Source of the DNA: an uncultured Oscillospiraceae bacterium
GTDB lineage: Bacteria > Bacillota > Clostridia > Oscillospirales > Oscillospiraceae
DNA: 53,755 nucleotides
Reading direction: 5' to 3'
NCBI GenBank assembly: GCA_964523945.1
Contig: CAZGBU010000002.1
Span: 1 to 53,755 of the forward strand
Shown here: piece by piece, positions 6,913 to 28,212 of the stretch
Layout: every line of letters starts with the position of its first letter
Numbering within the stretch: position 1 is the first letter of the stretch
The notes under the pieces: model-generated
Told to the model about the DNA's origin: nothing
Databases searched by the model: none
What the model saw: the letters and a program-made list of their open reading frames with translations, nothing else
Position numbers and translations under genes: made by a program

Positions 6913-6928
6913 GTATGCGGTTGTGTTC

Positions 6929-8346: not shown

Positions 8347-8394
8347 AGAAAAGCCTCCGGTTCCAATTCCTGCGCCAATCATAGCACACCGCGC

Positions 8395-8432
8395 GGTAAA
8401 AAGCAACGCGGCGCTTCCAGCGGAAGCGCCGC
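8395..8432 (-). terminator. intrinsic terminator after the nitroreductase gene
   Basis: gcggcgcttcc-nnn-ggaagcgccgc stem followed on the minus strand by GTTGCTTTTTACC. Confidence 0.7.
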
Positions 8433-8449
8433 GCAGGGAAGACTGGAGC

Positions 8450-8995: not shown

Positions 8996-9111
8996 GGTGG
9001 AAGTCCCTCCTGTCATAATTGGCTGCTAAACAATTACAGTATATCACAACTCTTTGCCGTTGACAACCAGCGGCATTTGTGGCAAATTGAACGAAGAAAG
9101 GATGTGCCAGT

Positions 9112-9507
9112 ATGCCGAATCGACGAAATGACGGAATGGCCTGGCTGACCGCCGTGACCAACGAAGAGGACGCCGCAGTGCTCAGCGAGCTGCTTGCGCG
9201 TGCCGACATCCCGTTTTATGCTGTCCGCCGCGGCGCAGGCGGGTACCTGCGCATTGTAATGGGTACGTCGATGTTCGGGCAGGATATCTATGTCCGTGAA
9301 GAGGACTATGACGAAGCGCTTGCATTGCTCGAAGACTGTTACGCCATGCGCGACGTCAGCGATGCGGAGCTGGACTGGCAGGCTGCGCATGCCGAGCCGA
9401 TGGACGAAGCGCCGGAGGAATCCGGTTCCTACCGGACATTCTTCTGGATCCTGGGCGCGCTTGTCCTGTTGCTGGCTGTGCTGGGTGTGTTACGCGTTCT
9501 GCTTTGA
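9112..9507 (+). CDS. small membrane-anchored protein, DUF2007-like (putative signal-transducing domain)
   Basis: About 70-aa alpha/beta N-domain (LTAVTNEEDAAVLSELLARADIPFY...YVREEDYDEALALLE), an acidic linker and a C-terminal TM helix. Its 3' end overlaps convergent bioY by 18 nt. Confidence 0.5.
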   Translation: MPNRRNDGMAWLTAVTNEEDAAVLSELLARADIPFYAVRRGAGGYLRIVMGTSMFGQDIYVREEDYDEALALLEDCYAMRDVSDAELDWQAAHAEPMDEAPEESGSYRTFFWILGALVLLLAVLGVLRVLL

Positions 9508-11108: not shown

Positions 11109-12062
11109 TCACTCGATTCCGAAGATCTCCCGTGCGTTGATATAATAGAGCATTTCCTGTTCTTTCTTTGTCATGCCGACAGAGTCGAGGAAGGAGATGC
11201 TCTCTTCATACGATTCAATCGGGTAGTCGGTGCCAAACAGGATGTGATCGATCCCGAGACGCTCTTTTGCACACAGGAACGCGGCCTTGGAGAAGTTGCC
11301 GCTTGTTGTGACAAAGACATTGTGCTTGAAGTAGTAGTCAAAGCTGCGCTCGTTGACGGCACCGCCACGGCTAACGCCCGGCATCGCATTGAAATGGTCG
11401 ATCCTGTCGAGCATAAACGGCATGGCTTCTCCATAGTGGCCGAGCATCATCTTGAGATTCGGCAGCCGGTCGAACACGCCCTTGCAGATCAGGCGGGTGA
11501 GCGTGATCGCGCCGTCGACATGGTAGCCCACGCCGGTGTCGAGCGCGACGCCCAGGCCGTTCAGCCGGTCGATGGCGGGTGGGCCGGGGTGCAGATAGAC
11601 AAACATATTCAGCTCGGCCGCTTTGTCGAGAATCGGGAAGTAAGCATCCTCATCGATGTAGTGGTCGGTGAAGTTCGAGTGTGTGTTCCAGCCGATAAAG
11701 CCGAGCTCGTCATGGCAGCGCTGCAGCTCCCGTACAGATCCGTCGATATCCTGCGGGATCAGATTGGCATAGCCGCAGATCCGACCGGGATACTGTTGGC
11801 TCATCTGATAAAACTCATCGTTGGCGGCGCGGGCAACCTCGGTTGCGGTTTCGAGCGGGAAGCGCTCCAGCCCGCCGGCACAGCTGACAAATTGCGTCTG
11901 TACCTCGAACCGGTCCATGATCTCAATGCGCTTTTCCAGCGTCAGCGCGAATGGGGACGGCCCATCCGGCGGGGGTACGGCCGGGCCGCCGGCCATCAGG
12001 GCCTGGCTGGCTTTGACGTAGGGCGCGGTGGTCTGATGCGCCTCGAAGTCGATCTTTTTCAT
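11109..12062 (-). CDS. amidohydrolase-2 family protein, non-oxidative (de)carboxylase-like
   Basis: KIDFEAH (Glu-x-His metal motif rather than His-x-His), YLHPGPP and LFGTDYP. These resemble the ACMSD / gamma-resorcylate / LigW decarboxylase branch. Confidence 0.7.
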   Translation of the reverse strand: MKKIDFEAHQTTAPYVKASQALMAGGPAVPPPDGPSPFALTLEKRIEIMDRFEVQTQFVSCAGGLERFPLETATEVARAANDEFYQMSQQYPGRICGYANLIPQDIDGSVRELQRCHDELGFIGWNTHSNFTDHYIDEDAYFPILDKAAELNMFVYLHPGPPAIDRLNGLGVALDTGVGYHVDGAITLTRLICKGVFDRLPNLKMMLGHYGEAMPFMLDRIDHFNAMPGVSRGGAVNERSFDYYFKHNVFVTTSGNFSKAAFLCAKERLGIDHILFGTDYPIESYEESISFLDSVGMTKKEQEMLYYINAREIFGIE

Positions 12063-12171
12063 TGCGGCAAGCCTCCTGTTTGAAGTGGGATCAGGAACAG
12101 CTTATCATAAAATGGCCTGCCGACAGCATGCAATTTGCGCATAAAATCCAGACGCGGCGCGTATAAGCCAT

Positions 12172-12966
12172 TTAAGCTGGGCCGGCTGCGCGGTGCGAGC
12201 GGCGGACGTTGCATACGCAGCAGGCCGCGGCGGCTGCAACGGCCAGCCCCGTGATGATCCAGAACGGCAGGGCGCGCTGCACGGTTGTAGCATAGTAGGC
12301 GGAGGCTGCGGCGCACAGCACAAAATCCAGCCCGAATACGGTCAGGAAGCTCCGGCCGGCGCGCAGTTTCTGCCGGTCGCCCTCGTCGTGCGCAGGCAGG
12401 ATACCAAAGCGCGAAAACGGCGGCAGCAGCACGGCGAACAGCGCGGCCATCACGATCACTTCAAACGGCAGCAGGATGGTGTTTTTGACCAGGCTTTTGA
12501 GCAGATAGTACCAATAGCCCTTGCTGTAGAGCATGCTGCTCCACAGGCTTCCAAGCAGGACATTGACGCCGTAGTTGACCAGAAATTTGGAGAGAAAAAG
12601 CCGCAGCACCGTAATTCGCCGGCGATAGAGCAGCAGCGCATAGATCAGGCAGCCAAGGCACGACGAGAGAATATACCCCGGGAAGAAACCCGACTGCGTA
12701 AAGAGGAAAAAGCTGAGCAGATCGACTGCCGCGCCGTAGAGCAGCGCGAGCACCGGACCGCCAACGGCGCAGGCGATCACGTTGACGAAGGCGGTGAAAT
12801 AGATGTTGAGATTCTCGCCCACTGTGATAAATACGCTGCTGATGGCGACAGAGAGTGCGCAGAACATGGCGCACAGCGCCAGGCTGCGCAGCCGTTTCAC
12901 TTCGGCTGCAGCGCTGCGCCAGTAGCCGGGCTGCGGCGACGGAACGGTGTTTTGTTTTCGTGACAT
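12172..12966 (-). CDS. folT: folate-family ECF-transporter S component with C-terminal extension
   Basis: GFFPGYILSSCLGCLIYALLLY and LGSLWSSMLY motifs of FolT. GGGGAGG SD before ATG 12964-12966. THF riboswitch upstream. 264 aa, with two extra C-terminal hydrophobic helices. Confidence 0.75.
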   Translation of the reverse strand: MSRKQNTVPSPQPGYWRSAAAEVKRLRSLALCAMFCALSVAISSVFITVGENLNIYFTAFVNVIACAVGGPVLALLYGAAVDLLSFFLFTQSGFFPGYILSSCLGCLIYALLLYRRRITVLRLFLSKFLVNYGVNVLLGSLWSSMLYSKGYWYYLLKSLVKNTILLPFEVIVMAALFAVLLPPFSRFGILPAHDEGDRQKLRAGRSFLTVFGLDFVLCAAASAYYATTVQRALPFWIITGLAVAAAAACCVCNVRRSHRAAGPA

Positions 12967-13020
12967 AAAAATACCTCCCCTATCCGGCAATGGTTGCCAC
13001 ACAGAGGAGTGATCCTTTAT

Positions 13021-13125
13021 GCGGAAGCGGGATGCGGATGCTGTACGGCGAACCGGTGTTCTTCGTCCCGAGGACAACTCCCCGTCCCTCGGGCACGTGA
13101 CCCACAGCATCCTACTCTGCCTGGA
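13021..13125 (-). promoter_or_regulatory. THF (tetrahydrofolate) riboswitch
   Basis: Minus strand reads GCAGAGUAGGAUGCUGUGGGUCACGUGCCCGAGGGACGGGGAGUUGUCCUCGGGACGAAGAACACCGGUUCGCCGUACAGCAUCCGCAUCC. It carries the AGAGUAG...GGGA...ACGAAG...CGCCGUA..GCAUCCGC blocks of THF-I. A downstream CUCCUC could sequester the SD. Confidence 0.75.
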
Positions 13126-13144
13126 TATTTGTTTTGTCGCCTCT

Positions 13145-13172
13145 ATTATACGCCCGATTCTGACAGATGCAA
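13145..13172 (-). promoter_or_regulatory. sigma-A promoter of the THF riboswitch-folT unit
   Basis: Minus strand TTGCAT-16 nt-TATAAT. Confidence 0.65.
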
Positions 13173-13214
13173 GCCCGATTTCTGATTTTAGGCAAAATAC
13201 GCGCGATTTCTGCG

Positions 13215-13243
13215 TTGCCAAACCCGGGGCAATGCGGTATAAT
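13215..13243 (+). promoter_or_regulatory. sigma-A promoter of the small membrane protein gene
   Basis: TTGCCA-17 nt-TATAAT. Confidence 0.6.
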
Positions 13244-13302
13244 AAGACCAGCAAAACGCGCCGGGGGACCGGTGCAATCGAATGCACAAAGGAGGCTCCC
13301 AG

Positions 13303-13473
13303 ATGAAAAGCAACCTGAAGTGGATCATTTCGATCGTGGCCGGCATTGCTGCGATCGGCGCGGTGGTCGCCGCCGTGATTGTGTTCTGGGATCAGATTCT
13401 CGATCTGATCAATCGCTGCCCCAAGCCGAAGTTCCGCCCGAAAGAATACGACGACTACGCGGATGTGGAGTAA
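13303..13473 (+). CDS. 56-aa single-pass membrane protein (hypothetical)
   Basis: MKSNLKWIISIVAGIAAIGAVVAAVIVFW... then a charged tail. AAAGGAGG SD 6 nt upstream. Has its own promoter and terminator. Confidence 0.5.
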   Translation: MKSNLKWIISIVAGIAAIGAVVAAVIVFWDQILDLINRCPKPKFRPKEYDDYADVE

Positions 13474-13486
13474 CTGACCGACAGTC

Positions 13487-13528
13487 AAAAACGGCATGGC
13501 CGGATGGCCGTGCCGTTTTTGTGTTTTT
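13487..13528 (+). terminator. intrinsic terminator
   Basis: aaaaacggcatggcc-gga-tggccgtgccgttttt followed by gtgttttt. Confidence 0.8.
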
Positions 13529-13607
13529 CAGCGGGCGAGTGTTGTAAGAATACACAAATCGGGAAAAGCGATTTTGTCTGATATAGCAATAGCGGCGCAC
13601 AGCAAAA

Positions 13608-13635
13608 TTGCGTAAAATATAACCATTGCTATGCT
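13608..13635 (+). promoter_or_regulatory. candidate promoter of the flavoenzyme operon
   Basis: TTGCGT-16 nt-TATGCT with an extended -10 TG (TGcTATGCT). Confidence 0.5.
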
Positions 13636-13716
13636 AATAAAAGGATTGCTGCGCAGCAGGTGCAGCGCGGCGGATCGTTTTGATGCAGGGAACATGGATC
13701 AGAGGAGGAATCACGG

Positions 13717-15369
13717 ATGAACACCAAGCAGGAAGCGCAGCAGTTCCCGGCCTGGGCCGGGCAGCCGCCGGTGATCGCAGACAACGAGATCACCGAGACG
13801 ATCGAAGCCGACATTGTGGTCGTCGGCAGCGGCAACGCAGGCGTACTGGCGGCGACTGCCGCGGCATTTGCCGGCGCATCGGTCAGCGTGATCGAGCAGC
13901 AGTCGCGTGAGCGTCTGCATATGTACGGCCTGGCCGACGTCGGAACACTCAACTCAAACTGGGCGAAGGAGCGCGGTGTGCCGCATATCGATGAGTCGGA
14001 ATTCATCGCCGAATGGCAGCACCGGACGCAGAACCGCTCCGACCCGCTCCTCATCCGGCAGTTTGCCTACCACTCCGGTGAGATGCTCGACTGGCTGATG
14101 TCGCTGATGTCGCCGATGCTGACCGGGCGCCTTCAGATCTCCAACTATCCCTGCCCTTTCCAGCGTTATGACGGCGAGGTGAGCGGCTACCGCACCTGGG
14201 CCGGCACCTGCGAATTGCACAACTGGGACACCGGTGTGCGGCAGGTCATTGCGCAGGCCGAGGCGAAGGGCGCAAAGTGGTACTGGGAGAATACAGCCGT
14301 CGTGCTGCGGCAGGAAAACGGCCGTGTCGTCGGCTGCATCGCCAAAACGAAGGACGGCAAGTACATCCACTACGCCGCAAAGAAAGGCGTCATTCTCTGC
14401 ACGGGCGACTTCGGCGCGAACCACGACATGTACGTCCACTTCCATCAGGAGATCGTGATGCAGTTTGAGTCGATGGGACTTCCGACTGACAAGCTGCGCA
14501 CGATGATGGGCCGCGACGGCATAGGGCAGCGGATGGCGGTCTGGGCCGGCGGCAGCATGGAGCCGGGTCCGTATGCCTGCATCTACCCGACGGCGGGCGC
14601 GCCGGCGAAAGGTGTCGACGCCAACCTCGCCAGCTGGAATGGCGGCGGCGGCCGCGCGGCGGATTTTCAGGGCACCTCGTTCCTGCGGCTCGATGCAGAC
14701 GGACGCCGCTATTGCGACGAGGGCATCATGGGCATCTACGGCATTCTGCATCGCACCTACCGCCGCGGCGGTGGGCTGAGCGTTGCGGTATTTGATTCGC
14801 AGTGGTTCGAGTATGTGCAATCGCAGTGCCATGAGCACTTCATGCCGTACAAGAACGACTTGCTCTGGGCGGAAAAGACGAAGGTCCTGCTGGCCGAGGC
14901 AGTCGAGGCTGGCAAGAAGGGCATTGGCAACGGACGCGGCAAGGAATCCAACCTGTTCGCGGCCAATACGATCGGCGAGCTGGCTGACGCACTGGGTTAT
15001 CAGGGTGCGGCAAAAAAGACGTTCGTGGAGTCTGTCGAGCGCTATAACCAGATGTGTAAACAGGGCAAGGATGCGGACTTTGGCAAGGATCCGAAGCTGT
15101 TGCTTGCGGTCGACAAGCCGCCGTACTATGCGCTCAAGACCGTCCTGACGCAGCCGGACACCGGCCTGGTTGGCCTCAATGGTGTGATTACAGATGAAAA
15201 TCAGGCGGTACTCGGCAAGGATTTCAAACCGATTCCTGGCCTGTTCGCCTCCGGCACCTGCGGCGGCGGCAAGTTCTTCCTGCAGTATTCGTCCGTAATG
15301 AGCGGCATGGCGGTCGGCATGGCCATGACCTTTGGCATGCTGGCCGGGCGGCATGTTGCGTCGCTCTGA
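13717..15369 (+). CDS. FAD-dependent oxidoreductase, FAD_binding_2 superfamily (3-ketosteroid dehydrogenase / soluble fumarate reductase-like), paralog 1
   Basis: DIVVVGSGNAGVLAA dinucleotide fold. C-terminal IPGLFASGTCGGGKFFLQYSSVMSGMAVGMAMTFG resembles the KstD-type C-terminus. GAGGAGGA SD. No signal peptide. Confidence 0.8.
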   Translation: MNTKQEAQQFPAWAGQPPVIADNEITETIEADIVVVGSGNAGVLAATAAAFAGASVSVIEQQSRERLHMYGLADVGTLNSNWAKERGVPHIDESEFIAEWQHRTQNRSDPLLIRQFAYHSGEMLDWLMSLMSPMLTGRLQISNYPCPFQRYDGEVSGYRTWAGTCELHNWDTGVRQVIAQAEAKGAKWYWENTAVVLRQENGRVVGCIAKTKDGKYIHYAAKKGVILCTGDFGANHDMYVHFHQEIVMQFESMGLPTDKLRTMMGRDGIGQRMAVWAGGSMEPGPYACIYPTAGAPAKGVDANLASWNGGGGRAADFQGTSFLRLDADGRRYCDEGIMGIYGILHRTYRRGGGLSVAVFDSQWFEYVQSQCHEHFMPYKNDLLWAEKTKVLLAEAVEAGKKGIGNGRGKESNLFAANTIGELADALGYQGAAKKTFVESVERYNQMCKQGKDADFGKDPKLLLAVDKPPYYALKTVLTQPDTGLVGLNGVITDENQAVLGKDFKPIPGLFASGTCGGGKFFLQYSSVMSGMAVGMAMTFGMLAGRHVASL

Positions 15370-15400
15370 TGCGGTGCGGATGGCAGGGAGGAAAGCGCAG

Positions 15401-17023
15401 ATGGAACAGCCCAAATTCAAATGGATGGTGCCGCCGGCGCCGGTGGACGAGTCGCTGGTCAACGAGACAATTGAGAGTGATGTCGTAGTGGTCGGCGCCG
15501 GGCACGCGGGCACCAGCATTGCCCGCGCGGCGGCAGAGCAGGGCATAGAAATCCTGGTGCTGGACAAACAGCGCTTGTTCGAGCGGCAGTTTGTCCCAGG
15601 CCATGAGGTCGGCGTGCTCAACTCGCAGCTTGCGCGCGAACGAGGCGTGCCGTACTATGACCCGATGGACATGGTGGTCGACTGGCAGATGCGCTCGCTC
15701 AACCGGACGAACGTCGAGCTGGTGCGGCAGTTTGCCTATCGCGGCGGCGAGACGCTCGACTGGTATCTCGAGCCGCTGCCGCAGGCTTTCCGCGACTCGA
15801 TCCGCATCTATATGTTCCCGCCGACGGCACGCTATACCGATACATACAACGGCTATAAGAACTTCCTGGGTACCGCGCTGTTTTACGGCGGCGAGGGTTA
15901 TCATCTGCTCGACGCGGTCAAGGCAAACCAGCGCGCTGCCATCGCGCACGGTGCGCGTTTTGTCTTCGACTGTGCCGGTGAGCAGCTGATTCTGGACGGC
16001 GGGCGAGTGACCGGCGTGTACGCCAAAAAGTCGGACGGGAGCTATGTCCGGGTCAACGCCAGACGGGCAGTCGTCCTCGCGGCCGGCGGCTGCACGACGA
16101 ACAACGAGATGGTGCATGATCTGTACGAAGAGCTCGACGAGGTGTTCGGCCATGACGCAAAGCTGGCCGGCATGGGTGTCGACGACGGCAGCGGGATCAA
16201 AATGGGCGTCTGGGCCGGCGGCCGCGTCCAGCCCGGCCCGCGTGCGGCGGTTGCGCCGTGCCTGTCGTTTATGGCTGGACAGTTCTCCGGCACGGCGTTT
16301 CTGCGGCTGAACCGGCACGGCAAGCGGTATACAAACGAAGGATTCCTCGGCGCGTTCGGTGCCGGCCTGGCCACATTCCGGCAGCCAAAGGGATTTGTGA
16401 GCGCCGTATTTGACAGCGGCTGGCGCGAGGAGCTCGAGGATCAGGCGCCAGACCACACCAATGTCAATGTCCGCTGGCCAGAGCTGATGGAGCGGCTCGA
16501 GCGTGATATGGAACGCGTTGTCGCAGCCGGTGCAGCCGGTGCACAGATCCATGGTACGACCAACATGGAAGGCGGCGACCGCCTGGCCGGCGACCCGATC
16601 TACTGCTGTGAAACACTGGAGGAGCTGGGCCGTGTGCTTGGCTATGCGGGTGAGACGCTTACGAATTTCCTGCACAGCATCGAGCGCTACAACGAGCTGT
16701 GTGCCAAGGGCGTCGACGAGGACTTTGGCAAGGATCCGCGGCAGATGCACGCCATCGTCAAGCCGCCGTTTTTCGGAACGCGCAACGAGCATCCCGTTGC
16801 ACGCGGCCCAATGGCGACGCTCAGCGGTCTGGTGATCGACGAGGCACAGCGCGTACTGGACGAAAACGGCGACCCAATCCCGGGACTGTACGCCTCGGGC
16901 AACAACGCCGGCGGCCGGTTTGCTGTGCAGTATTCCACGCCGATGTCCGGTGTTTCCATCGGCATGGCGATCACGCTCGGCAGACTGCTTGGCCTGTCGC
17001 TGGCGGACACGGCGTCTAAATGA
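15401..17023 (+). CDS. FAD-dependent oxidoreductase, FAD_binding_2 superfamily, paralog 2
   Basis: DVVVVGAGHAGTSIA, LVRQFAYRGGETLDW and IPGLYASGNNAGGRFAVQYSTPMSGVSIGMAITLG. Start at ATG 15401 behind AGGGAGGAAA. Shares many blocks with the upstream gene. Confidence 0.8.
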   Translation: MEQPKFKWMVPPAPVDESLVNETIESDVVVVGAGHAGTSIARAAAEQGIEILVLDKQRLFERQFVPGHEVGVLNSQLARERGVPYYDPMDMVVDWQMRSLNRTNVELVRQFAYRGGETLDWYLEPLPQAFRDSIRIYMFPPTARYTDTYNGYKNFLGTALFYGGEGYHLLDAVKANQRAAIAHGARFVFDCAGEQLILDGGRVTGVYAKKSDGSYVRVNARRAVVLAAGGCTTNNEMVHDLYEELDEVFGHDAKLAGMGVDDGSGIKMGVWAGGRVQPGPRAAVAPCLSFMAGQFSGTAFLRLNRHGKRYTNEGFLGAFGAGLATFRQPKGFVSAVFDSGWREELEDQAPDHTNVNVRWPELMERLERDMERVVAAGAAGAQIHGTTNMEGGDRLAGDPIYCCETLEELGRVLGYAGETLTNFLHSIERYNELCAKGVDEDFGKDPRQMHAIVKPPFFGTRNEHPVARGPMATLSGLVIDEAQRVLDENGDPIPGLYASGNNAGGRFAVQYSTPMSGVSIGMAITLGRLLGLSLADTASK

Positions 17024-17036
17024 GAGGGAGGAACCA

Positions 17037-19025
17037 ATGAGAAAATATCCGCATCTGGCTGCGCCGATCACAGTGCGCGGCATCACGCTGAAAAATCGCA
17101 TTTTGGCCACGCCGATTCAATCGGCCGGCACGACGAAAGACGGCGTCCCGACCGAGAAAGCCTGCGCATTTTTCGGCGAGCGCGCAAAGGGCGGCGCCGC
17201 TGTCGTCACAATGGGCGAAGCAGCAGTCAATCACGGTTATGCCGTCCGGCTGGGCGTCACGACCGATCTGATCGATTTCAAGTTCGAGAATATGGACGAT
17301 TTCAAGCACTTCACCTACGCCATCCGGCGCTACGGCGCGGTCCCGTCCATCCAGCTCTGCCACGCCGGCACCGAAGCCAACCCGCGCGATGCGCAGGGGC
17401 GCCCGATGCTGCCGATCGGCCCATCGCCGCGTACGCGGCCGGCACAGGATCGGCCGGGGCGCAAGCCGAACCCCGACCAGGAGATGATTACGACCCTGGA
17501 GATGACGCGCGATCAGATCCGCAAGACGATTGCGGACTTTGCCAACTGTGCAGCCAACGCCAAGCGGTACGGCTTCCAGATGGTGCAGCTGCACGGCGGC
17601 CACGGATGGCTGCTTGACCAGTTTTCGTCGAAGCTGCTCAACCGGCGCACCGACGAGTACGGCGGCAGTGCGGAAAACCGCGCGCGCTTCGCCTGCGAGC
17701 TGCTTGATGCAATCCGTGCCGCGGTGGGCGAGGACTTCCTGATCGAGTACCGCCTGAGCTGGAACCAGATGCTCGACGGCGGCAATACGCTTGCCGACAC
17801 GATCGACTTTGCCCGGCGGATCCAGGACAAGGTCGATATCATCAATGTCTCCATCGGTACACACTGGATCCTCGATCATTGCAACCAGATTTTCCCGCTC
17901 TGGTTTGTCGAGCACGGGCTGAACATCGAAGCGGCGGCCGAGATCAAAAAGAACGTCTCGTGCCTGGTGTCTGTCGTCGGCGGCATTGACGACCCGGCCA
18001 TGGCCGAGGCGGCGCTGGCTGCGGGCAAGTGCGATTTTATCTCGATGTGCCGCGGCCTGATCGCAGACCCGCACTGGCCGAACAAGGCGATTGAGGGGCG
18101 CGATGACGAGATCATTCCCTGTGTGCGCTGTATCACCTGCCACGACAGTATGGCCTCTGACGGCACGCTGTGCGCTGTCAATCCGCGCACGCTGCAGGAG
18201 CACTGGCTTGCCGATACACCCGCACCTGCTGCGCGGCGGCGTGTGGTGGTGGTCGGCGGCGGCGTCGGCGGCATGCAGGCGGCCATCACGGCAGCGGAAC
18301 GCGGACACGAGGTAACCCTGTTTGAAAAAGAGGCGGTGCTCGGCGGCATTCTGCACTTCACCGCATATCAGACTGTCAAAAAGGATATGAACGCGTTTGT
18401 CCGTTACCAGATCCACATGCTCGAAAAGCTGGGCGTTGATGTGCGCCTCGGCACCGAGGCGACGCCGGAGCTGGTGGAGTCTCTCGAACCGCACACGGTG
18501 ATCACGGCGGTTGGCAGCGAGCCGATCCGTCCAAACATCCCGGGTGTGGAAAACGCTGTTTCGGCCCTGTGGGCATATGCGCACCAGGACCGGCTCGGCG
18601 CGCGCGTTGCCATCATCGGCGGGAACCTGTCCGGGCTGGAGCTGGGGATTGATCTGGCGTCGACGGGGCACTCGGTCACCGTTGTCGAGATGCTCGATGA
18701 GGTGGGTGCCGGCGCGCCGACGTTCTACTGGTACGGGATCAAGGAAGAACTCGAACACAACGCCGACCGGATGATGCTTTGCACAGGTTGCACCTGCACG
18801 GCCATTGCGCCGGACGGCATTACCATTCAGGGCAGGGACGGCGTGGCCAGGCAGATTGAAGCAGACAGCGTGATCTATGCCGTCGGCATGCGCGCCCGTG
18901 CCGACGAGGCCGCCCGCTTCGCCGGCTGTGGGCTGCACGAGGTCAAGGTCGGCGACTGTGACCGGGTTGCGCGCATGAAGCAGGCCGTCACCGCCGGTTA
19001 TCTGGCTGCGCTGAGCATACAGTGA
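17037..19025 (+). CDS. FMN/[4Fe-4S]/FAD ene-reductase of the 2,4-dienoyl-CoA reductase / enoate reductase family (ER1)
   Basis: OYE-type barrel (LKNRILATP, QLHGGHGWLLDQF, RTDEYGGSAENRARF). Cys cluster PCVRCITCHDSMASDGTLCAVNP. Then VVVVGGGVGGMQAA and VAIIGGNLSG Rossmann folds. GAGGGAGGA SD. Confidence 0.85.
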   Translation: MRKYPHLAAPITVRGITLKNRILATPIQSAGTTKDGVPTEKACAFFGERAKGGAAVVTMGEAAVNHGYAVRLGVTTDLIDFKFENMDDFKHFTYAIRRYGAVPSIQLCHAGTEANPRDAQGRPMLPIGPSPRTRPAQDRPGRKPNPDQEMITTLEMTRDQIRKTIADFANCAANAKRYGFQMVQLHGGHGWLLDQFSSKLLNRRTDEYGGSAENRARFACELLDAIRAAVGEDFLIEYRLSWNQMLDGGNTLADTIDFARRIQDKVDIINVSIGTHWILDHCNQIFPLWFVEHGLNIEAAAEIKKNVSCLVSVVGGIDDPAMAEAALAAGKCDFISMCRGLIADPHWPNKAIEGRDDEIIPCVRCITCHDSMASDGTLCAVNPRTLQEHWLADTPAPAARRRVVVVGGGVGGMQAAITAAERGHEVTLFEKEAVLGGILHFTAYQTVKKDMNAFVRYQIHMLEKLGVDVRLGTEATPELVESLEPHTVITAVGSEPIRPNIPGVENAVSALWAYAHQDRLGARVAIIGGNLSGLELGIDLASTGHSVTVVEMLDEVGAGAPTFYWYGIKEELEHNADRMMLCTGCTCTAIAPDGITIQGRDGVARQIEADSVIYAVGMRARADEAARFAGCGLHEVKVGDCDRVARMKQAVTAGYLAALSIQ

Positions 19026-19051
19026 GCAGCGGAAGATAAGGAGGTTGTTCC

Positions 19052-19636
19052 ATGAAGAATATTCTTGCCATTTCCACCAGTCCGAGAAAGGGCGCGAACG
19101 CTGACACCATTGTCCATGCCGCGTCAGAGGCGGCCCGTGCGGCGGGTGCTGTCGTCACGGAGGTTGCGTTCCGTGACCTGAAGATCAACTACTGCATCGG
19201 CTGCGGCTGCTGCAAGCAGCCCGGCAATGCCGGCAGGTGTGCGCAGAAAGACGACATGCAGGCGCTGCTTGACCAGCTCCAGACCTGCGACGGCATGATC
19301 TTTTCGACCGGCGTCTATTTCGGTTCGTTCACAGCGCAGGCCAAGACGTTCATCGACCGGATGTACGCGCTGTTCCGTCCCGGTCCGCCGCCGAAGCAGG
19401 ATCCCGCTGCGCCGAAGCCGGCGCCGAAGAAGCTGCTTGTCGTCATGACGGAGGGGATGCCGCGGCCAGACGCGGACAAGGCGCGCGCTGAGGAGATCTT
19501 TGGCTGCTTCGGCGTCGCAGGGTTCAACACGATGGAGTATCTCGTGATTGACGGTTGCCGCGAGCGCGACAGCGCCGCCAACAACCCGGCACATCTGGCT
19601 GCAGCTGCAGAAAAGGGCACTTGGCTCGCGCAGTGA
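19052..19636 (+). CDS. flavodoxin-fold NADPH-dependent FMN reductase / iron-sulfur flavoprotein-like protein
   Basis: ILAISTSPRKGANADT flavodoxin-like P-loop. Compact Cys motif C-IG-C-G-C-C-x9-C resembles Isf proteins. AAGGAGG SD. Confidence 0.7.
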   Translation: MKNILAISTSPRKGANADTIVHAASEAARAAGAVVTEVAFRDLKINYCIGCGCCKQPGNAGRCAQKDDMQALLDQLQTCDGMIFSTGVYFGSFTAQAKTFIDRMYALFRPGPPPKQDPAAPKPAPKKLLVVMTEGMPRPDADKARAEEIFGCFGVAGFNTMEYLVIDGCRERDSAANNPAHLAAAAEKGTWLAQ

Positions 19637-19664
19637 TCCGCTCTGCCGCATCGAAAAAACACAG

Positions 19665-19700
19665 CAGCCGCGCACCCGAAACGGGGTGCGTGGCTGTTTT
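19665..19700 (+). terminator. intrinsic terminator ending the four-gene flavoenzyme unit
   Basis: cagccgcgcaccc-gaaacg-gggtgcgtggctg followed by tttt. Confidence 0.75.
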
Positions 19701-19732
19701 GCTTATTTAGAAAGTAAAAAAACCGCTTGCTG

Positions 19733-19760
19733 TTGACTTTTTGTCATGTTATACTAATAT
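19733..19760 (+). promoter_or_regulatory. sigma-A promoter of ER2
   Basis: TTGACT-16 nt-TAATAT. Confidence 0.6.
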
Positions 19761-19785
19761 GCGCCGAATTCTGAAAGGAGACTTC

Positions 19786-19791
19786 ATGTAA
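19786..19791 (+). other. start-stop minicistron (ATG-TAA) between the SD and the ER2 start codon
   Basis: AAAGGAG(19774-19780)-acttc-ATGTAA-a-ATG(19793). The SD is optimally spaced for the ATG-TAA, not for the ER2 ATG. Confidence 0.4.
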
Positions 19792-19792
19792 A

Positions 19793-21763
19793 ATGAATCA
19801 GTTCTATCCGCACATTTTTCAGCCGCTGACTGTGAAAAACACGACGTTCAAAAACCGCATTTTCACCGCGCCGACGACTGCGCATATGGTGCAGAACAAC
19901 GAGCCGTACTATCCCGAACCGAGTTACATCAAAAACTATCTGGAAAAGGCAAAGGGTGGCGTCGCCTGTGTCAACTGCGGCGGACAGAAAATCGAGCTGA
20001 CCGGCCGTAACCCGATCCACACAGAGTTCAATATCACGGATCCGCGCGGCTGGCGGAATTTCATCCATATGACGGATGCGATTCATTTTTACGACGCCCG
20101 CTGCTCATATGAGCTGATCCATTTCGGCACCGAGGGCGAATACACAGAAGAGGCCAAACAGGGCGTGATCTATGGGTGCTCGGACTTTGTGCGCAACGAC
20201 GGGCTGGAGTTCCATCAGATGCCGCTGTCTGAGATGGAACGCATTGCCGATCGCTATGCAGAGCTGGCAGCCTGCATTGAAAAGTGTGGTTTTGACTCGT
20301 TGTTGCTGCACGGCGGCCACGGTACGCTGCTGCAGGAGTTTGTCTCGCCGCGCGGCAATCATCGTGAGGATGAATTCGGCGGTTCCATGGAAAACCGTGC
20401 CCGCTTCCCGCGGATGGTGCTCGACGCCATCCGCGCCAGAACCGGCCGTGACTTCCTGATCGAGTACCGCATCTCCGGATCGGAGTGTGTGCCGGGGGGC
20501 TTTTCGCTGGAAGAGTGCATCGAATATGTCAAGCTGATCCAGGACAAGATCGATATTATCCATGTCTCGGCCGGCGTTGTGCGCGAGCCGCGCCTGCGCG
20601 CGATCACGCATCCGACGGGTTTCCTTGCCCCGGGCTGCAATGCGTATCTGGCCAAGGCGGTCAAAGCCTGCCCGGATATCCATATCCCCGTACTGACAGT
20701 CGGCGCGTTCCAGCGGCCGGAGCTGATTGAGCAGACACTCGCCGAGGGCGGTGCGGACGTTGTTGCAATGGCACGCGGCACCATTGCCGATCCGCACACG
20801 GTTGAAAAGGCACGGCAGGGACGGCCGGATGACATCGTGCCGTGCATCAAATGCTTCCACTGCCTCGACGAATTCAAGGACACCCATTATTATTCCTGTG
20901 CGGTCAACCCCGAGGCCGGCCGCGAGGACTATCTCGATATGCTCGTACCGGACGAGTATGACCGCCAGCGCGTCAGTATCATCGGCGGCGGGCCGGCCGG
21001 CATGCGCGCGGCGCTGATGGCGGCTGAGCGCGGCCATGATGTCACGTTGTATGAAAAGGAGAATTATCTCGGCGGCCAGCTCAAGGACGCTGCATTTATG
21101 GACTTCAAATATGACCTGCTCGCGTATGAGAACTACCTGATCGAGCATGTCAAGGCCGCGCCGATCCATCTGAAGCTCGGCGTGACGGCCACGCCGGAGA
21201 TGGTTGCAGCGGAGCACTTCGATGCTGTGATCTGTGCGATCGGCGCCGATCCGCTGATCCCACCCATCCCGGGCATCGACGGCGCAAATGTCATCTGGGC
21301 CGGCGACAGCCTGTTCGCGCAGGAAAAAGTCGGCCAGCGAGTCTGCGTCATCGGCGGCGGCCAGGTCGGCTGTGAGACGGCGGTCTACTACGGCCGGCAG
21401 GGCAAAGCGGTCACAGTGCTTGAAATGCAGGGGGCGCTCGCCCCGGATGCGATGCGAACCTACCGCGAGGAGCTCGAGGGGCAGGTACGCGACCATGCCG
21501 AGACGGTTCTGCTCGGTGTGCGCTGCACCGGCATTACACAGCAGGGTGTGCGCTATGAAACAGCGGACGGACAGACGCACGAGGTCCTTTGCGACACGGT
21601 CATCCTCGCGCTCGGCATGCGCGCCCGTGCGGCCGAGGCCGAGACGTTCCGCGACAGTGCGGCGAACTTCCGCCGCATTGGCGACTGTGTGAAGCCGCGC
21701 AATGTCAAATGGGCGACGCGCACTGCATTCGAGGCGGTTATGAGTCTGAAAGATCGCGCTTGA
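19793..21763 (+). CDS. FMN/[4Fe-4S]/FAD ene-reductase of the 2,4-dienoyl-CoA reductase / enoate reductase family (ER2)
   Basis: FKNRIFTAP, LLHGGHGTLLQEF, REDEFGGSMENRARF. Cys cluster PCIKCFHCLDEFKDTHYYSCAVNP. VSIIGGGPAGMRAA and VCVIGGGQVG folds. Confidence 0.85.
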   Translation: MNQFYPHIFQPLTVKNTTFKNRIFTAPTTAHMVQNNEPYYPEPSYIKNYLEKAKGGVACVNCGGQKIELTGRNPIHTEFNITDPRGWRNFIHMTDAIHFYDARCSYELIHFGTEGEYTEEAKQGVIYGCSDFVRNDGLEFHQMPLSEMERIADRYAELAACIEKCGFDSLLLHGGHGTLLQEFVSPRGNHREDEFGGSMENRARFPRMVLDAIRARTGRDFLIEYRISGSECVPGGFSLEECIEYVKLIQDKIDIIHVSAGVVREPRLRAITHPTGFLAPGCNAYLAKAVKACPDIHIPVLTVGAFQRPELIEQTLAEGGADVVAMARGTIADPHTVEKARQGRPDDIVPCIKCFHCLDEFKDTHYYSCAVNPEAGREDYLDMLVPDEYDRQRVSIIGGGPAGMRAALMAAERGHDVTLYEKENYLGGQLKDAAFMDFKYDLLAYENYLIEHVKAAPIHLKLGVTATPEMVAAEHFDAVICAIGADPLIPPIPGIDGANVIWAGDSLFAQEKVGQRVCVIGGGQVGCETAVYYGRQGKAVTVLEMQGALAPDAMRTYREELEGQVRDHAETVLLGVRCTGITQQGVRYETADGQTHEVLCDTVILALGMRARAAEAETFRDSAANFRRIGDCVKPRNVKWATRTAFEAVMSLKDRA

Positions 21764-21822
21764 AGCGAAAAAGCAGCGCGCCGCAGCGGGCGAGCGTATA
21801 AGAGCTTTGTTATTTGGGAAAA

Positions 21823-21860
21823 ACAGGCAGGAACTGAACCGCAGTTCCTGCCTGTTTTCT
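21823..21860 (+). terminator. intrinsic terminator after ER2
   Basis: acaggcaggaactg-aaccg-cagttcctgcctgt followed by tttct. Confidence 0.8.
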
Positions 21861-22009
21861 GTCTGCCGTTCCCGGAAAAAAATGAAAGCGCGCCGTAATT
21901 TGGAACGCAGAAGGAACTCTGCTGGAATTTATAAGGAACAGCCCGGTGGTATCATGATTCAAACTGCGCGGCACAAGCCCGCTGAAATACGAATTGGAGG
22001 AATCTATTT

Positions 22010-22231
22010 ATGTATTTTGACGCCATTGCAAAGATCGTTTCGGAGCGCACCGGCTGCGACATTGCCGACGTGAAGCCGGAAAGCAAGTTCTCCGAGCTCG
22101 GCATTGACTCGCTCGACACGGTGGAGCTGCTGATGAACCTGGAAGATGAACTCGGCATCGAGATCGAGCTGGATCAGAAAGTGGAAACGGTCGACGATCT
22201 GGACAAATTCATTCAGAGCAAGCAGGGCTGA
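22010..22231 (+). CDS. acpP: acyl carrier protein
   Basis: 73 aa. LGIDSLDTVELLMNLEDEFG-type phosphopantetheine site (DSLD). GGAGG SD. Confidence 0.9.
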   Translation: MYFDAIAKIVSERTGCDIADVKPESKFSELGIDSLDTVELLMNLEDELGIEIELDQKVETVDDLDKFIQSKQG

Positions 22232-22238
22232 AACAGCG

Positions 22239-23183
22239 ATGATCAAGTCAGTGATTTGCGAAATGCTGGGGATTCAATACCCGGTGTTTCAGGGCGGCAT
22301 GGCCTGGATCGCAGACGGAAAGCTGGCCGCCGCCGTGTCTGAGGGCGGCGGCCTTGGTGTGATTGCGGCAGGCAATTCCAACAGTGACGCCGTCCGGGAG
22401 CAGGTGCGCATTGCGCGTGCGCGCACCACAAAGCCCATCGGCGTGAATATCATGCTGATGAGCCGCTATGCCGACGATATCGCGCAGCTCGTGATTGACG
22501 AGCATGTCGAAGTCGTGACCACCGGCGCGGGCAACCCCTCGAAATACATGAAGCGCTGGCAGGAAGCCGGCATCCGGGTGATCCCCGTTGTCGCCTCCGT
22601 GGCGATGGCGAAGCTGATGACCCGGCTGGGCGCGTCGGCGCTCATCGCCGAGGGCGGAGAGAGCGGCGGCCATGTCGGCGAGCTGACCACCATGGTGCTT
22701 GTGCCACAGATCTGCGACGCGACGACGCTCCCGGTGCTGGCCGCTGGCGGCATTGCCGACGGGCGCGGCTTTGCGGCGGCGCTGATGCTGGGCGCGTGCG
22801 GTGTACAGATGGGTACGCGCTTCCTGAGCGCGGAGGAATGTACGATCTCCCCGGTATACCAGGAGAAGATCCTCAAGGCCACGGATCTGTGCACAATGGT
22901 AACGGGCAAGCGCCTGGGGCATCCTGTCCGCAGTCTGCGCACACCGTTTGCGCGCAGCTTTTCCAAGGATGAGTACAGCGGTATGTCCGACGAGGAACTC
23001 TCGGCGCGCACGACGGGCGCGTTCCGCCTCGCCGTGCGGGAAGGCGACCTGGAAAACGGCTGCTTTCTCTCGGGCCAGGTTGCCGCAATGGTGAAGCGGG
23101 TGCAGCCTGCCGCCGAGATCGTCCGGGAAGTTGTGGAGGAGGCGGAACCGATCCTCCGGGGGGCAGCAAAATGGGTCGAATAG
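22239..23183 (+). CDS. fabK: enoyl-[ACP] reductase II (FMN, nitronate monooxygenase fold)
   Basis: LGIQYPVFQGGMAWIADGKLAAAVSEGGGLGVI, AEGGESGGHVG, AAGGIADGRG. Position between acpP and fabD. Confidence 0.85.
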   Translation: MIKSVICEMLGIQYPVFQGGMAWIADGKLAAAVSEGGGLGVIAAGNSNSDAVREQVRIARARTTKPIGVNIMLMSRYADDIAQLVIDEHVEVVTTGAGNPSKYMKRWQEAGIRVIPVVASVAMAKLMTRLGASALIAEGGESGGHVGELTTMVLVPQICDATTLPVLAAGGIADGRGFAAALMLGACGVQMGTRFLSAEECTISPVYQEKILKATDLCTMVTGKRLGHPVRSLRTPFARSFSKDEYSGMSDEELSARTTGAFRLAVREGDLENGCFLSGQVAAMVKRVQPAAEIVREVVEEAEPILRGAAKWVE

Positions 23184-24076
23184 CGTTTGTTTTCTCAGGA
23201 CAGGGCGATCAGTACCCCGGCATGGGGCATGCGCTCGCTGAGCAGTACACGGCTGCGGCAGATGTTTTTGCCCGCTGTGACCGGATCCGACCCGGCACGT
23301 CGGCACAGTGCTTTACAGGAACGGAAGAGGAACTCAAGCAGACTGCGAATACGCAGCCATGCCTGTTTGCCATGGAGCTTGCGGCGGCGGCGGTGCTCCG
23401 CGAAAAGGGCGTCAGGCCGGACGCGGTAGCAGGCTTTTCACTCGGCGAAGTTGTGGCTGCGACTGTGAGCGGCCTGTTTGACGAGGAGACCGGTTTTGAG
23501 CTGGTGTGCCGGCGCGGCGAGCTGATGCAGCGCGAAGCGGAGAAGTTTGATACGGCCATGGCTGCGGTTTTGAAGCTTACGGCGGAGCAGGTGCGCGCAC
23601 TCTGCGACAGCCGCGAGGGGGTCTACCCCGTGAACTTCAACTGTCCCGGGCAGATCAGCGTCGCCGGGCTCTCTTCGCAGATGCCGGACTTTTTTGCGGC
23701 AGTCAAAGCTGCGGGCGGTCGGGCGATTCCGCTGAAAGTCAGGGGAGCGTTCCATTCGCCGTTTATGAATGAGGCTGCACGCGAGTTCGCGTCTGAACTG
23801 AAAAAGGCGGAAATCCGTAGTCCTGCGATTACGCTCTACTCTGACCTGACTGCCGAGCCGTATACCGATGATGTCGTTGGGCTCCTGTCACGGCAGATCT
23901 GCAGCCCGGTGCAGTGGGAAAGACTGATTCACAATATGCTTGCCGCGGGCATCGACACGTTTGTTGAGATCGGCCCGGGCAGGACGCTGACCAATATGAT
24001 TCGGCGTATTGCGCCCGAAACGCGGGCTTTGCCGTATGCCGATTGTTTGGAGGAGGCGGAGCATGCTACACGGTAA
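23171..24076 (+). CDS. fabD: malonyl-CoA:ACP transacylase
   Basis: FVFSGQGDQYPGMG, GFSLGEV active-site Ser, GAFHSPFM. Confidence 0.9.
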   Translation: MGRIAFVFSGQGDQYPGMGHALAEQYTAAADVFARCDRIRPGTSAQCFTGTEEELKQTANTQPCLFAMELAAAAVLREKGVRPDAVAGFSLGEVVAATVSGLFDEETGFELVCRRGELMQREAEKFDTAMAAVLKLTAEQVRALCDSREGVYPVNFNCPGQISVAGLSSQMPDFFAAVKAAGGRAIPLKVRGAFHSPFMNEAAREFASELKKAEIRSPAITLYSDLTAEPYTDDVVGLLSRQICSPVQWERLIHNMLAAGIDTFVEIGPGRTLTNMIRRIAPETRALPYADCLEEAEHATR

Positions 24077-24791
24077 AACAGCGCTGATCACCGGCGGATC
24101 ACGCGGGATCGGCGAGGCAATTGCATATAGATTCGCGTCAATGGGCGCAAACATCGCCATTGTATATGCGGGCAACAGCGAGGCCGCAGTGGCGGTCTGC
24201 GTAGCGTGTACGCAGCGCTACAATGTGGATGCGCGCGCCTACCAGTGCAACGTTGCGGACTTTGCTGCGGTAAAAGAGACCGTATCGCGCATCAAGGCCG
24301 ATTTTGGGACGGTGCATATTCTTGTAAACAATGCGGGCATCACCCGCGATGGGCTGATCGCAACAATGCGGGAAGCGGACTTTGACGCGGTGGTGGACAC
24401 CAATCTCAAGGGTGCATTCAACATGATCCGCCACTGCGCGGGCCTGTTTCTCCGCAACCGCGGAGGCTGTATCATCAATATCTCTTCGGTTGCGGGCCTG
24501 ATGGGCAACGCCGGGCAGAGCAACTATGCTGCATCAAAGGCGGGGCTCGTCGGACTGACCAAGTCCGTCGCCCGTGAGCTGGCCTCGAGAGGCGTCCGCT
24601 GCAATGCCATTGCGCCGGGCTTTATTGCCACCGACATGACGGACGATCAGGGAGAAAATCCGCTGCTCCAGCAGATCCCGCTGGGCAGAATGGGCACAGC
24701 CGACGACGTGGCCGGCGCTGCGGCGTATCTGGCGACAGCCGATTATGTAACCGGCGCCGTGCTGTATGTCGACGGCGGCGTCGCGATGTGA
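24063..24791 (+). CDS. fabG: 3-oxoacyl-[ACP] reductase
   Basis: ALITGGSRGIG, NNAGITRD, SSVAGLMGNAGQSNYAASKAG (SDR S-Y-K triad). ATG 24063 follows GGAGGAGG. Confidence 0.9.
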   Translation: MLHGKTALITGGSRGIGEAIAYRFASMGANIAIVYAGNSEAAVAVCVACTQRYNVDARAYQCNVADFAAVKETVSRIKADFGTVHILVNNAGITRDGLIATMREADFDAVVDTNLKGAFNMIRHCAGLFLRNRGGCIINISSVAGLMGNAGQSNYAASKAGLVGLTKSVARELASRGVRCNAIAPGFIATDMTDDQGENPLLQQIPLGRMGTADDVAGAAAYLATADYVTGAVLYVDGGVAM

Positions 24792-24803
24792 GGAGCATAG
24801 ACT

Positions 24804-26045: not shown

Positions 26046-26049
26046 GAAC

Positions 26050-26478: not shown

Positions 26479-26481
26479 CGC

Positions 26482-26898: not shown

Positions 26899-26900
26899 CC

Positions 26901-28208: not shown

Positions 28209-28212
28209 AGCA

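Follow-up and report, generated by a model that had tools for sequence, protein, structure and literature searches.

Closest described systems

Iron-sulfur (Fe-S) flavoenzymes, which join an old yellow enzyme-type (OYE-type) flavin mononucleotide (FMN) domain, a four-Cys motif and a flavin adenine dinucleotide (FAD) domain, and flavin reductases of the PF00890 family are abundant in anaerobes of the gut and carry out many transformations there, acting on bile acids, steroids, bilirubin, cholesterol and polyphenols, and most members have no known substrate. Here we describe a block of five flavoprotein genes, termed G1 to G5 in order, within a stretch of 53,755 nucleotides (nt) that is called the window throughout (contig CAZGBU010000002.1 of an uncultured Oscillospiraceae bacterium, assembly GCA_964523945.1, forward strand). 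G1 and G2 encode PF00890 reductases, G3 and G5 encode Fe-S flavoenzymes, and G4 encodes a small protein of flavodoxin-like fold; a third Fe-S flavoenzyme paralog, ER3, is encoded elsewhere in the window. The block is real and conserved, and its interpretation as a module for the reduction of carbon-carbon double bonds (C=C) is plausible but only partly supported.

BilR and BilV (the methine-bridge and vinyl reductases of bilirubin), with the flavodoxin-like BilS, resemble this locus in having two paralogous FMN/[4Fe-4S]/FAD enzymes in a single neighbourhood and a small flavodoxin-like protein nearby; unlike this locus, bil loci have no PF00890 genes. OsrA and OsrB of Clostridium steroidoreducens (steroid delta-1 and delta-4 reductases) and IsmB (5-cholestenone reductase) belong to the same Fe-S flavoenzyme family as G3 and G5. 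Purified OsrB and IsmB are reported to perform poorly with NADH or NADPH (NAD(P)H) and to depend on a donor not yet identified (bioRxiv 10.1101/2024.10.08.617280; 10.64898/2025.12.29.696961). The OsrA and OsrB paralogs have complementary regioselectivity, and the low-potential donor needed by OsrB and IsmB corresponds to the role that we propose for G4. In contrast to the genes described here, osrA, osrB and ismB are not known to lie beside a gene for an FMN/Fe-S partner or to be accompanied by PF00890 genes.

To our knowledge, bile-acid 7-dehydroxylation (Bai) is the only well-known gut pathway that joins Fe-S flavoenzymes (BaiCD, BaiH) with a PF00890 flavoprotein (BaiJ), as this locus does. 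Some loci with distant relatives of G1 carry SnoaL_4 and major facilitator superfamily (MFS) genes, like baiE/baiI/baiG. However, no gene for a coenzyme A (CoA) ligase, CoA transferase, short-chain dehydrogenase/reductase (SDR) or dehydratase is present in this locus, unlike Bai. In the two-component NADH:2-enoate reductases (the hydroxycinnamate reductase HcrAB, the vinylphenol reductase VprA and the Vibrio cinnamate and acrylate reductases), the PF00890 unit is fed by a separate flavin unit that oxidizes NADH. G1 and G2 differ from these in having no FMN_bind domain, and the donor proposed here differs in having a four-Cys motif.

Exported "respiratory-like" flavin reductases have been described for Eggerthellaceae (bioRxiv 10.1101/2022.12.26.521950). 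These PF00890 enzymes (the urocanate, itaconate and cinnamate reductases, Cgr2 and Ber) are of the type of the nearest G1 relatives beyond the G1 clade itself. Unlike them, G1 and G2 have no signal peptide and are partnered with soluble FMN/Fe-S proteins; as predicted cytoplasmic enzymes they would therefore not make the same use of a membrane electron-transport chain. Gene clusters of gut anaerobes with Fe-S flavoenzymes of the same class, accompanied by flavodoxin-type or electron-transfer flavoprotein-type genes and by transporters, were surveyed by Pascal Andreu et al. (2020, PMC7371122), but unlike this module they come without mention in that survey of fumarate-reductase-type (PF00890) genes or of SBP_bac_5. 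Clusters of Fe-S flavoenzymes with flavodoxin-type partners are already known in gut anaerobes, and what is new here is the small uncharacterised clades. Unlike the surveyed class at large, the clades of G1 (about 17 clusters at at least 54% identity), G3 (8 clusters at at least 64%) and G4 (8 clusters at at least 65%) are small and are confined to a few uncultured Oscillospiraceae.

Organization of the gene block

The block lies entirely on the forward strand and consists of G1 (13717-15369, 550 amino acids [aa]), G2 (15401-17023, 540 aa), G3 (17037-19025, 662 aa), G4 (19052-19636, 194 aa) and G5 (19793-21763, 656 aa). A sequence-only reading of this DNA had described the first four genes (13717-19636) as closely spaced, each with a strong Shine-Dalgarno sequence, and the open reading frames (ORFs) and the sequence bear this out. 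The intergenic gaps are 31, 13 and 26 nt, and ribosome-binding sites of the GGAGG type precede the start codons of all five genes by 5-8 nt (AGGAGG for G1, GGGAGG for G2 and G3, AAGGAGG for G4 and AAGGAGA for G5). All five products matched their Pfam families well above the cut-offs, so that both their description as flavoproteins and the family assignments made earlier were correct.

The same reading had the four genes running from one promoter to one terminator. The terminator half of this claim holds: a strong, G+C-rich hairpin of 15 bp with a T-tail closes the G1-G4 unit at 19663-19698 (+; -32.9 kcal/mol, z = -6.0). On the promoter half, a consensus scan upstream of G1 found no sigma-70-like site. 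The upstream region (13522-13716) is partly conserved, and a TAnAAT box (TAAAAT, TACAAT or TAGAAT) aligns among the window and related contigs (L016/L017 and L001); in the window, TAAAAT at 13613-13618 (+) is a candidate -10 box for the G1 operon, a function suggested by the alignment. G5 has signals of its own, as had been stated: a promoter-like site, TTGACT-16-TAATAT (19733-19760, +), which is a consensus match only, and a terminator-like hairpin 3' of the gene (21820-21858, +; -29.8 kcal/mol, z = -6.1). A scan of the cluster against Rfam at a permissive threshold returned no riboswitch or other known RNA. The best explanation of these signals is that the block would be transcribed as two units, G1-G2-G3-G4 and G5.

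Conservation in related genomes

Conservation of gene order across related genomes had been proposed as a check, and it was found. Seven other contigs from uncultured Oscillospiraceae (related contigs are numbered L001-L020) encode a G1 that is 81-86% identical, and they repeat the gene order of the window; the arrangement is therefore not a product of chance. L015 reads folT, small gene, SBP_bac_5, LysR, G1, G2, G3, G4, G5; L001 reads SBP_bac_5 followed by G1-G5; L002 and L003 read SBP_bac_5, LysR, G1, G3, G4; and L020, which starts inside LysR, reads LysR, G1, G3, G4. The shorter contigs L016 and L017 are like the window in having neither SBP_bac_5 nor LysR, and they keep the same order up to their ends. 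G1-G3-G4 is intact in the window, L001, L002, L003, L015 and L020, and is unbroken in every contig that spans these genes; the G1-G3 gap in L002 is 15 nt, and G3 and G4 are neighbours wherever a locus is long enough to contain the pair. In contrast, G2 is present in the window, L001, L015, L016 and L017 and absent from L002, L003 and L020, and G5 is present in the window, L001 and L015 and absent from L002/L003. We therefore regard G1-G3-G4 as the core, with G2 and G5 as accessory genes. Further homologs of G3 (66% and 64% identity) and G4 (68% and 65%) had matching longest contigs of 2959 and 4985 nt, which suggests, but does not confirm, that each pair shares a contig. The metagenome scan contributed four loci, too few for co-occurrence statistics.

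It had been noted earlier that the block is devoid of regulator and transporter genes. This is correct within 13608-21860, but it does not describe the module. A LysR gene lies directly upstream of G1 in L015, L002, L003 and L020, and a gene for an SBP_bac_5 lipoprotein lies upstream in L015, L002, L003 and L001; the protein has a signal peptide and a lipobox and is 87% identical between L001 and L002. Judging from these arrangements, the lack of both genes belongs to this genome and its nearest relative rather than to the module. Nor is the term "island" appropriate. The G+C content of the block (0.58-0.63) equals that of its flanks in a window of about 60% G+C throughout, and the block is better described as a variable locus in a rearrangement-prone region, because the genes that follow the module differ in every lineage: fab genes in the window, an M24 peptidase gene in L001, CitF-like genes in L002 and a 2-hydroxyacid dehydrogenase gene in L015.

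More distant homologs show related associations. G1 homologs at 45-58% identity lie beside a gene for a 350-aa fusion of flavodoxin and Fer4 (ferredoxin) in L004, L005, L008, L011 and L012. They are accompanied by G5-like Fe-S flavoenzymes in L005, L008 and L011 and have one to six orphan SBP_bac_5 lipoprotein genes near them in L005, L008, L011 and L012. SnoaL_4 (NTF2-fold) genes are found in L005 and L008, and MFS, PucR-type and molybdopterin-enzyme genes in some of the distant loci. G3 homologs at 49-54% identity are found beside a PF00890 gene and LysR (L018) or beside a flavodoxin-like gene (L019). From these comparisons, the recurring unit is a predicted cytoplasmic PF00890 enzyme with a small FMN/Fe-S protein and an Fe-S flavoenzyme.

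Several of these contigs had features of separate interest. In L011, six SBP_bac_5 genes (2155-7107 and 12131-17895) surround the G1-like genes, an unusual association, and no permease or ATPase genes were seen around these arrays within the 19-kb stretch. A conserved protein of 620-655 aa is encoded in L005 (11690-13549), L011 (8870-10837), L004 (6752-8623) and L008 (1315-3225). Its gene sits between the G1-like and flavodoxin-Fer4 genes in L004, L005 and L011 and elsewhere in the L008 locus, and it is absent from the window lineage; it had no confident Pfam match, with a weak Beta_helix match in one member. In L010, a G1 homolog lies directly 3' of a three-subunit molybdoenzyme of the xanthine dehydrogenase family (3828-9330). 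The Bacteroidaceae label of L003 (CAVFYN010000171.1) probably reflects mis-binning in the source assembly: the contig has the gene order of the Oscillospiraceae loci, and its proteins match theirs at about 64-87% identity.

Features of the encoded enzymes

G1 and G2 scored 110 and 100 bits against the Pfam model FAD_binding_2, which places them in the PF00890/KstD superfamily, and are 34% identical to each other. Both have FAD only, with neither an FMN_bind domain nor any other built-in electron-input domain. An exact-sequence look-up of G1 matched no record, and its solved relatives are all remote (best E = 1e-21). The AlphaFold2 model of G1 (pLDDT 86) was compared with solved structures by Foldseek; UrdA, Fcc3, two kinds of KstD and cyclohexanone dehydrogenase were about equal (TM about 0.6, 15-21% identity, E = 1e-30 to 1e-22). 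KstD-type catalytic tyrosines would fall in a loop of the model, residues 287-315, that is of low confidence. R331 of G1 is invariant and is the counterpart of the catalytic Arg402 of fumarate reductases (Fcc3). The fumarate-binding residues of Fcc3 are changed in G1: His365 is Tyr, Arg545 is Val, and the region of the His at position 504/505 is not conserved. Because these ligands of the substrate carboxylate are not kept, we conclude that G1 is not a fumarate reductase.

None of the five proteins reached any curated equivalog cut-off of NCBIfam. For the KstD equivalogs, G1 and G2 scored 96 and 98 bits with NF009478 (cut-off 789) and 75 and 91 bits with NF005882 (cut-off 788); these scores come to roughly one tenth of the cut-offs, and the models align only to the C-terminal third of each protein. 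For the VprA equivalog NF053717 (cut-off 600 bits) the scores were 101 and 133 bits. No twin-arginine (Tat) or Sec signal was found at the N-terminus of G1 or G2; the FAD Rossmann motif starts about 30 residues from the N-terminus, and neither an RR motif nor a hydrophobic segment precedes it. Since both lack a signal peptide, they are predicted to be cytoplasmic. Beyond the G1 clade, the most similar proteins (38-42% identity to G1) carry twin-arginine signals and are encoded beside LuxR/GerE regulators. Signals of the MSRRSF type open the relatives at about 40% identity, with RRxF seen in the homologs P0021, P0025 and P0026. By this comparison, G1 belongs to a small cytoplasmic offshoot of the exported "respiratory-like" flavin reductase family.

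G3, G5 and ER3 each matched the Pfam models Oxidored_FMN (PF00724) and Pyr_redox_2 (PF07992), with 201 and 97 bits for G3, 180 and 100 bits for G5, and 116 and 87 bits for ER3. Pfam and paralogy confirmed the claim that a third ene-reductase of this family is encoded at 37378-39381 (-). The ER3 gene is divergent to a LysR gene (39487-40446) and is probably a unit separate from the five-gene block. G3 is 35% identical to G5 and 34% identical to ER3. The PDB matches of the Fe-S flavoenzymes were naphthoyl-CoA reductase (NCR, 261 bits) and FadH (218 bits). A four-Cys motif between the domains, the predicted [4Fe-4S] site, is present in all aligned relatives, with the spacing CX2CX2CX10C in G3, CX2CX2CX11C in G5 and CX2CX2CX12C in ER3. 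The OYE-site motif reads HGGHGW in G3, HGGHGT in G5 and HMAYRL in ER3. The OYE-type active-site His-x-x-His pair is therefore kept in G3 and G5, whereas the two closest solved structures, FadH and naphthoyl-CoA reductase, do not have it, which argues for a carbonyl- or carboxyl-activated alkene as the putative target of G3 and G5 rather than a CoA thioester.

The three paralogs also differ in the second nucleotide-binding motif. It is the degenerate GGNLSG in the G3 clade, the canonical GGGQVG in G5 and GGSETG in ER3; G3 has a further motif, GGGVGG. The second Rossmann motif of the enzymes from distant loci is GGG(Q/F)(V/I)G and that of the NADPH-dependent FadH is GCGGIG, whereas naphthoyl-CoA reductase has GGNEIS. 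For the latter enzyme, a ferredoxin-type protein is the proposed donor (bioRxiv 10.64898/2025.12.29.696961).

Orthology to a characterised pathway had been named as the finding that would overturn the earlier interpretation, and none was found among the pathways tested. These tests covered BaiCD/IsmB, BilR, BilV, KstD, VprA, Fcc3 and FLR, and not OsrA/B, BaiH, BaiJ/P, the equol enzymes or Fcr. Against the BaiCD equivalog NF041087 (cut-off 825 bits), G3, G5 and ER3 scored 383, 355 and 291 bits. Against the BilR models, G3 and G5 scored 386 and 384 bits with NF045599 (BilR-long, the highest-scoring NCBIfam model for both proteins, cut-off 750) and 203 and 166 bits with NF045592 (cut-off 425). 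Of the BaiCD/IsmB signature, HxxHxY with CX2CX2CX15C (bioRxiv 10.64898/2025.12.29.696961), G3 and G5 retain both His but have Trp (G3) or Thr (G5) in place of Tyr, and the last Cys spacing is X10 or X11. The BilR active-site motif HGDR (PMC13252198) is absent, as the site reads HGWL in G3 and HGTL in G5. BilV has AHAH in a lengthened active-site loop (bioRxiv 10.64898/2026.06.10.731317); G3 and G5 read HGGH, and their loop is not longer. We reject orthology to Bai, Bil and Ism, and likewise to VprA, KstD, fumarate reductase and FLR. That no Tyr follows HxxH was considered as a peculiarity of G3 and dropped, since HxxHGW also occurs in enzymes from the distant loci and in P0110. P0110 (JGI label "flavanone/flavanol-cleaving reductase") shares just 42% identity with G3 and G5, a level matched or exceeded by thousands of other homologs.

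G4 is an FMN_red/Flavodoxin_2 protein (FMN_red, 68 bits). Four of its Cys (C48, C51, C54 and C63) do not vary among 10 homologs, the most distant of them at 35% identity. Foldseek neighbours of its AlphaFold2 model (pLDDT 87) were azoreductases, SsuE, NQO and FLR, and the model resembles NAD(P)H:FMN, quinone and azo reductases. The best solved relative is the N-terminal WrbA-like domain of the flavone reductase FLR (7D38, E = 3e-12), with residues 3-104 of G4 aligned to residues 2-105 of FLR. The C-terminal tail of FLR binds flavone via His271, Ile275 and Thr279 (PMC7862272). G4 (194 aa, compared with 310 aa for FLR) lacks this substrate-binding tail. No BilS-type model was matched by G4. Its Cys pattern comes near the Isf motif, and the label "Isf-like" given to G4 earlier is reasonable but unproven.

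Proposed function and alternative explanations

We lean slightly towards the block encoding a cytoplasmic module for the reduction of C=C bonds that adjoin a carbonyl or carboxyl group, the target being one imported organic compound or a few related ones. We infer a reductive direction because the host is anaerobic, the location is predicted to be cytoplasmic and characterised relatives behave in this way. As FAD-only enzymes with no electron-input domain, G1 and G2 need a partner. G4 would be reduced by NAD(P)H or ferredoxin and hand the electrons to G1 and G2, and perhaps to G3 with its degenerate NAD(P)H-type Rossmann motif; G5, with the canonical motif, would use NAD(P)H directly. This electron path is proposed because of the differences in Rossmann motif and because OsrB and IsmB reportedly need a donor that has yet to be identified. 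In sister genomes, the upstream SBP_bac_5 lipoprotein and LysR would probably provide uptake and induction, with the genes of the module presumably regulated together, and this genome has lost both genes at the site. Paralogous Fe-S flavoenzymes that act on different bonds of one substrate have precedents in OsrA/OsrB (bioRxiv 10.1101/2024.10.08.617280) and BilR/BilV (PMC13252198).

The sequence-only reading had gone further and described a multi-step module for C=C reduction. Reduction of C=C bonds by several enzymes is the best-supported part of that description; parallel enzymes, each with its own substrate, agree with the variable gene content about as well as a single multi-step pathway does. 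The substrate classes it mentioned (steroid, bile pigment or polyphenol) are a guess. A narrower proposal, which we consider unlikely, is that G1, G3 and G4 form an electron-sharing unit in which G4 is the missing type of low-potential donor for enzymes such as OsrB and IsmB, and that this unit performs, on a substrate captured by the SBP_bac_5 lipoprotein of sister genomes, a reduction still lacking an enzyme, such as the conversion of urobilinogen to stercobilinogen or the reduction of a sterol or steroid ring.

Several points weigh against a joint reductive module fed by G4. A degenerate GxGxxG motif is not proof that NAD(P)H binding has been lost. The G1 homolog of L010 (59% identity) has no FMN/Fe-S or other such partners. 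The last Cys spacing is X8 in G4 and X5-X6 in distant homologs; that of G4 is just beyond the range of the Isf motif, CX2CX2CX5-7C (PMC3164229), and no Isf structure was among the top 50 Foldseek matches of the G4 model. As the close loci all belong to a single narrow lineage, their shared gene order is in part shared ancestry. Lastly, the dispensability of G2 and G5 and the separate promoter of G5 fit independent enzymes equally well.

Independence of the enzymes is in fact the alternative that deserves most attention, possible though in our view doubtful: the block would be a reductase "arsenal" of five enzymes with different substrates, gathered by duplication and shuffling at a site prone to rearrangement, with co-transcription being incidental. 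G2 and G5 come and go independently of the core, the latter with its own promoter and terminator; the paralogs are old (34-35% identity), and the flanks differ between sister genomes. The numerous paralogous reductases of distant loci, together with as many as six SBP_bac_5 genes, suggest parallel specificities, and large sets of flavin reductases with one substrate per enzyme are found in other gut bacteria (bioRxiv 10.1101/2022.12.26.521950). However, the spacing is tight, both here (13-31 nt) and between G1 and G3 in L002 (15 nt), G1-G3-G4 stay together in every spanning contig, and upstream of these genes the sister genomes encode just one regulator and one binding protein. That binding lipoprotein and LysR point to a specific imported ligand and so also speak against a stress or detoxification set of broad-specificity quinone, azo, nitro or electrophile reductases, which is very unlikely. 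Such a set would agree with azoreductases and NAD(P)H:quinone oxidoreductases being structural neighbours of G4 and with the frequent promiscuity of OYE-type enzymes, but those PF00890 enzymes and long Fe-S flavoenzymes of gut bacteria that have been characterised have narrow substrate ranges (bioRxiv 10.1101/2022.12.26.521950; 10.1101/2024.10.08.617280).

It is rather improbable that G1 and G2 act in the oxidative direction, as KstD-type desaturases whose electrons would pass via G4 to G3 or G5 in a redox-neutral rearrangement of a cyclic ketone (double-bond shift, epimerisation or dismutation). Foldseek does put 3-ketosteroid and cyclohexanone dehydrogenases almost level with the reductases, and the C-terminal regions of G1 and G2 match KstD models; the KstD equivalog scores are nevertheless far below the cut-offs, and the nearest named relatives in strict anaerobes are reductases (bioRxiv 10.1101/2022.12.26.521950). 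SnoaL_4 genes occur in some distant loci, as in pathways with isomerases or dehydratases, but no SnoaL, dehydrogenase or dehydratase gene occurs in this locus or its close relatives. Least credible of all, and extremely unlikely, is that the block is an orthologue of a characterised pathway (Bai, BilR/BilV, Osr, Ism, equol or flavone reductase). BilR-long and BaiCD were the top NCBIfam models for G3 and G5, and the N-terminal domain of FLR is nearest to G4 among solved structures. The model scores are about half of the cut-offs (386/750 and 383/825), though; the BilR, BilV and BaiCD/IsmB signatures and the FLR tail are absent, as are the SDR, CoA ligase, CoA transferase and dehydratase genes.

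With the reductive module as the preferred function, the locus is chiefly of value as a candidate with which the electron-donor question can be tested. It is a compact case in which an Fe-S flavoenzyme with a degenerate motif is always encoded beside a four-Cys FMN protein and an FAD-only reductase. If G4 is the donor, it would offer a handle for reconstituting enzymes such as OsrB and IsmB; if it is not, the cluster would be just another uncharacterised set of reductases, from an uncultured lineage of Oscillospiraceae.

Surroundings of the block in the window

Upstream of the block are birA, bioY and an Amidohydro_2 gene. The last of these (11109-12062, -) lies between birA and folT, is conserved in L002, L003 and L015 and had no NCBIfam match; its family includes non-oxidative aromatic-acid decarboxylases and hydratases. 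A mechanical ORF of 441 aa next to it (12172-13497, -) was considered as a transporter for the module and rejected. The ORF is over-extended and contains a tetrahydrofolate (THF) riboswitch (RF01831, 88 bits, 13023-13121, -), and the real gene, from 12172 to about 12990 (-), encodes a folT-family energy-coupling factor (ECF) S component of about 270 aa by its NCBIfam match. The transporter neighbouring the block serves folate. Farther upstream, a thiamine pyrophosphate (TPP) riboswitch (6799-6909, -) precedes thiT (6167-6742) and a thiamine pyrophosphokinase gene (5539-6162); thiT, bioY and folT place three vitamin ECF S components within 7 kb. Between folT and G1, a 56-aa gene (13303-13473, +) encodes a protein with one transmembrane helix and a C-terminal RPKEYDDYADVE motif and has a terminator hairpin at 13486-13521 (-29.7 kcal/mol). 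It is kept at the same place in L002, L003, L015, L016 and L017 (59-72% identity).

Downstream, the 18.7 kb from G5 to an M24 peptidase gene (21764-40457) hold fab/acc genes, an acyl-CoA ligase, a PAS protein, an ATPase, an AraC gene, ER3 and LysR, and this stretch is absent at the corresponding position of L001. The fab/acc genes form an operon from 22011 to about 29859 (+), acpP-fabK-fabD-fabG-fabF-accB-fabZ-accC-accD-accA, in which acpP (MYFDAIAKIV...DSLDTVEL) starts at 22011, ahead of the mechanically listed start of the fabK ORF at 22146. A functional link between the module and these genes was rejected, since, of the three contigs reaching beyond G5 (window, L001 and L015), only the window has this adjacency. 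A P-type ATPase is split into two overlapping ORFs at 33686-34978 and 34777-35790 (-), one with an E1-E2_ATPase part and the other with a Hydrolase part, possibly by a frameshift, pseudogene formation or sequencing error. The LysR gene at 39487-40446 was rejected as the displaced regulator of the module, because its product shares just 30% identity with the LysR that L002 encodes upstream of G1. Beyond it, a block at 41878-48056 (+) was rejected as an ABC transporter; it is an operon whose products are CitF-like and CitE-like (HpcH/HpaI) proteins, a pair of 2-hydroxyacid dehydrogenases, an LDH/MDH-like protein and a regulator of the IclR type. The same operon lies directly 3' of the flavoenzyme module in L002/L003.

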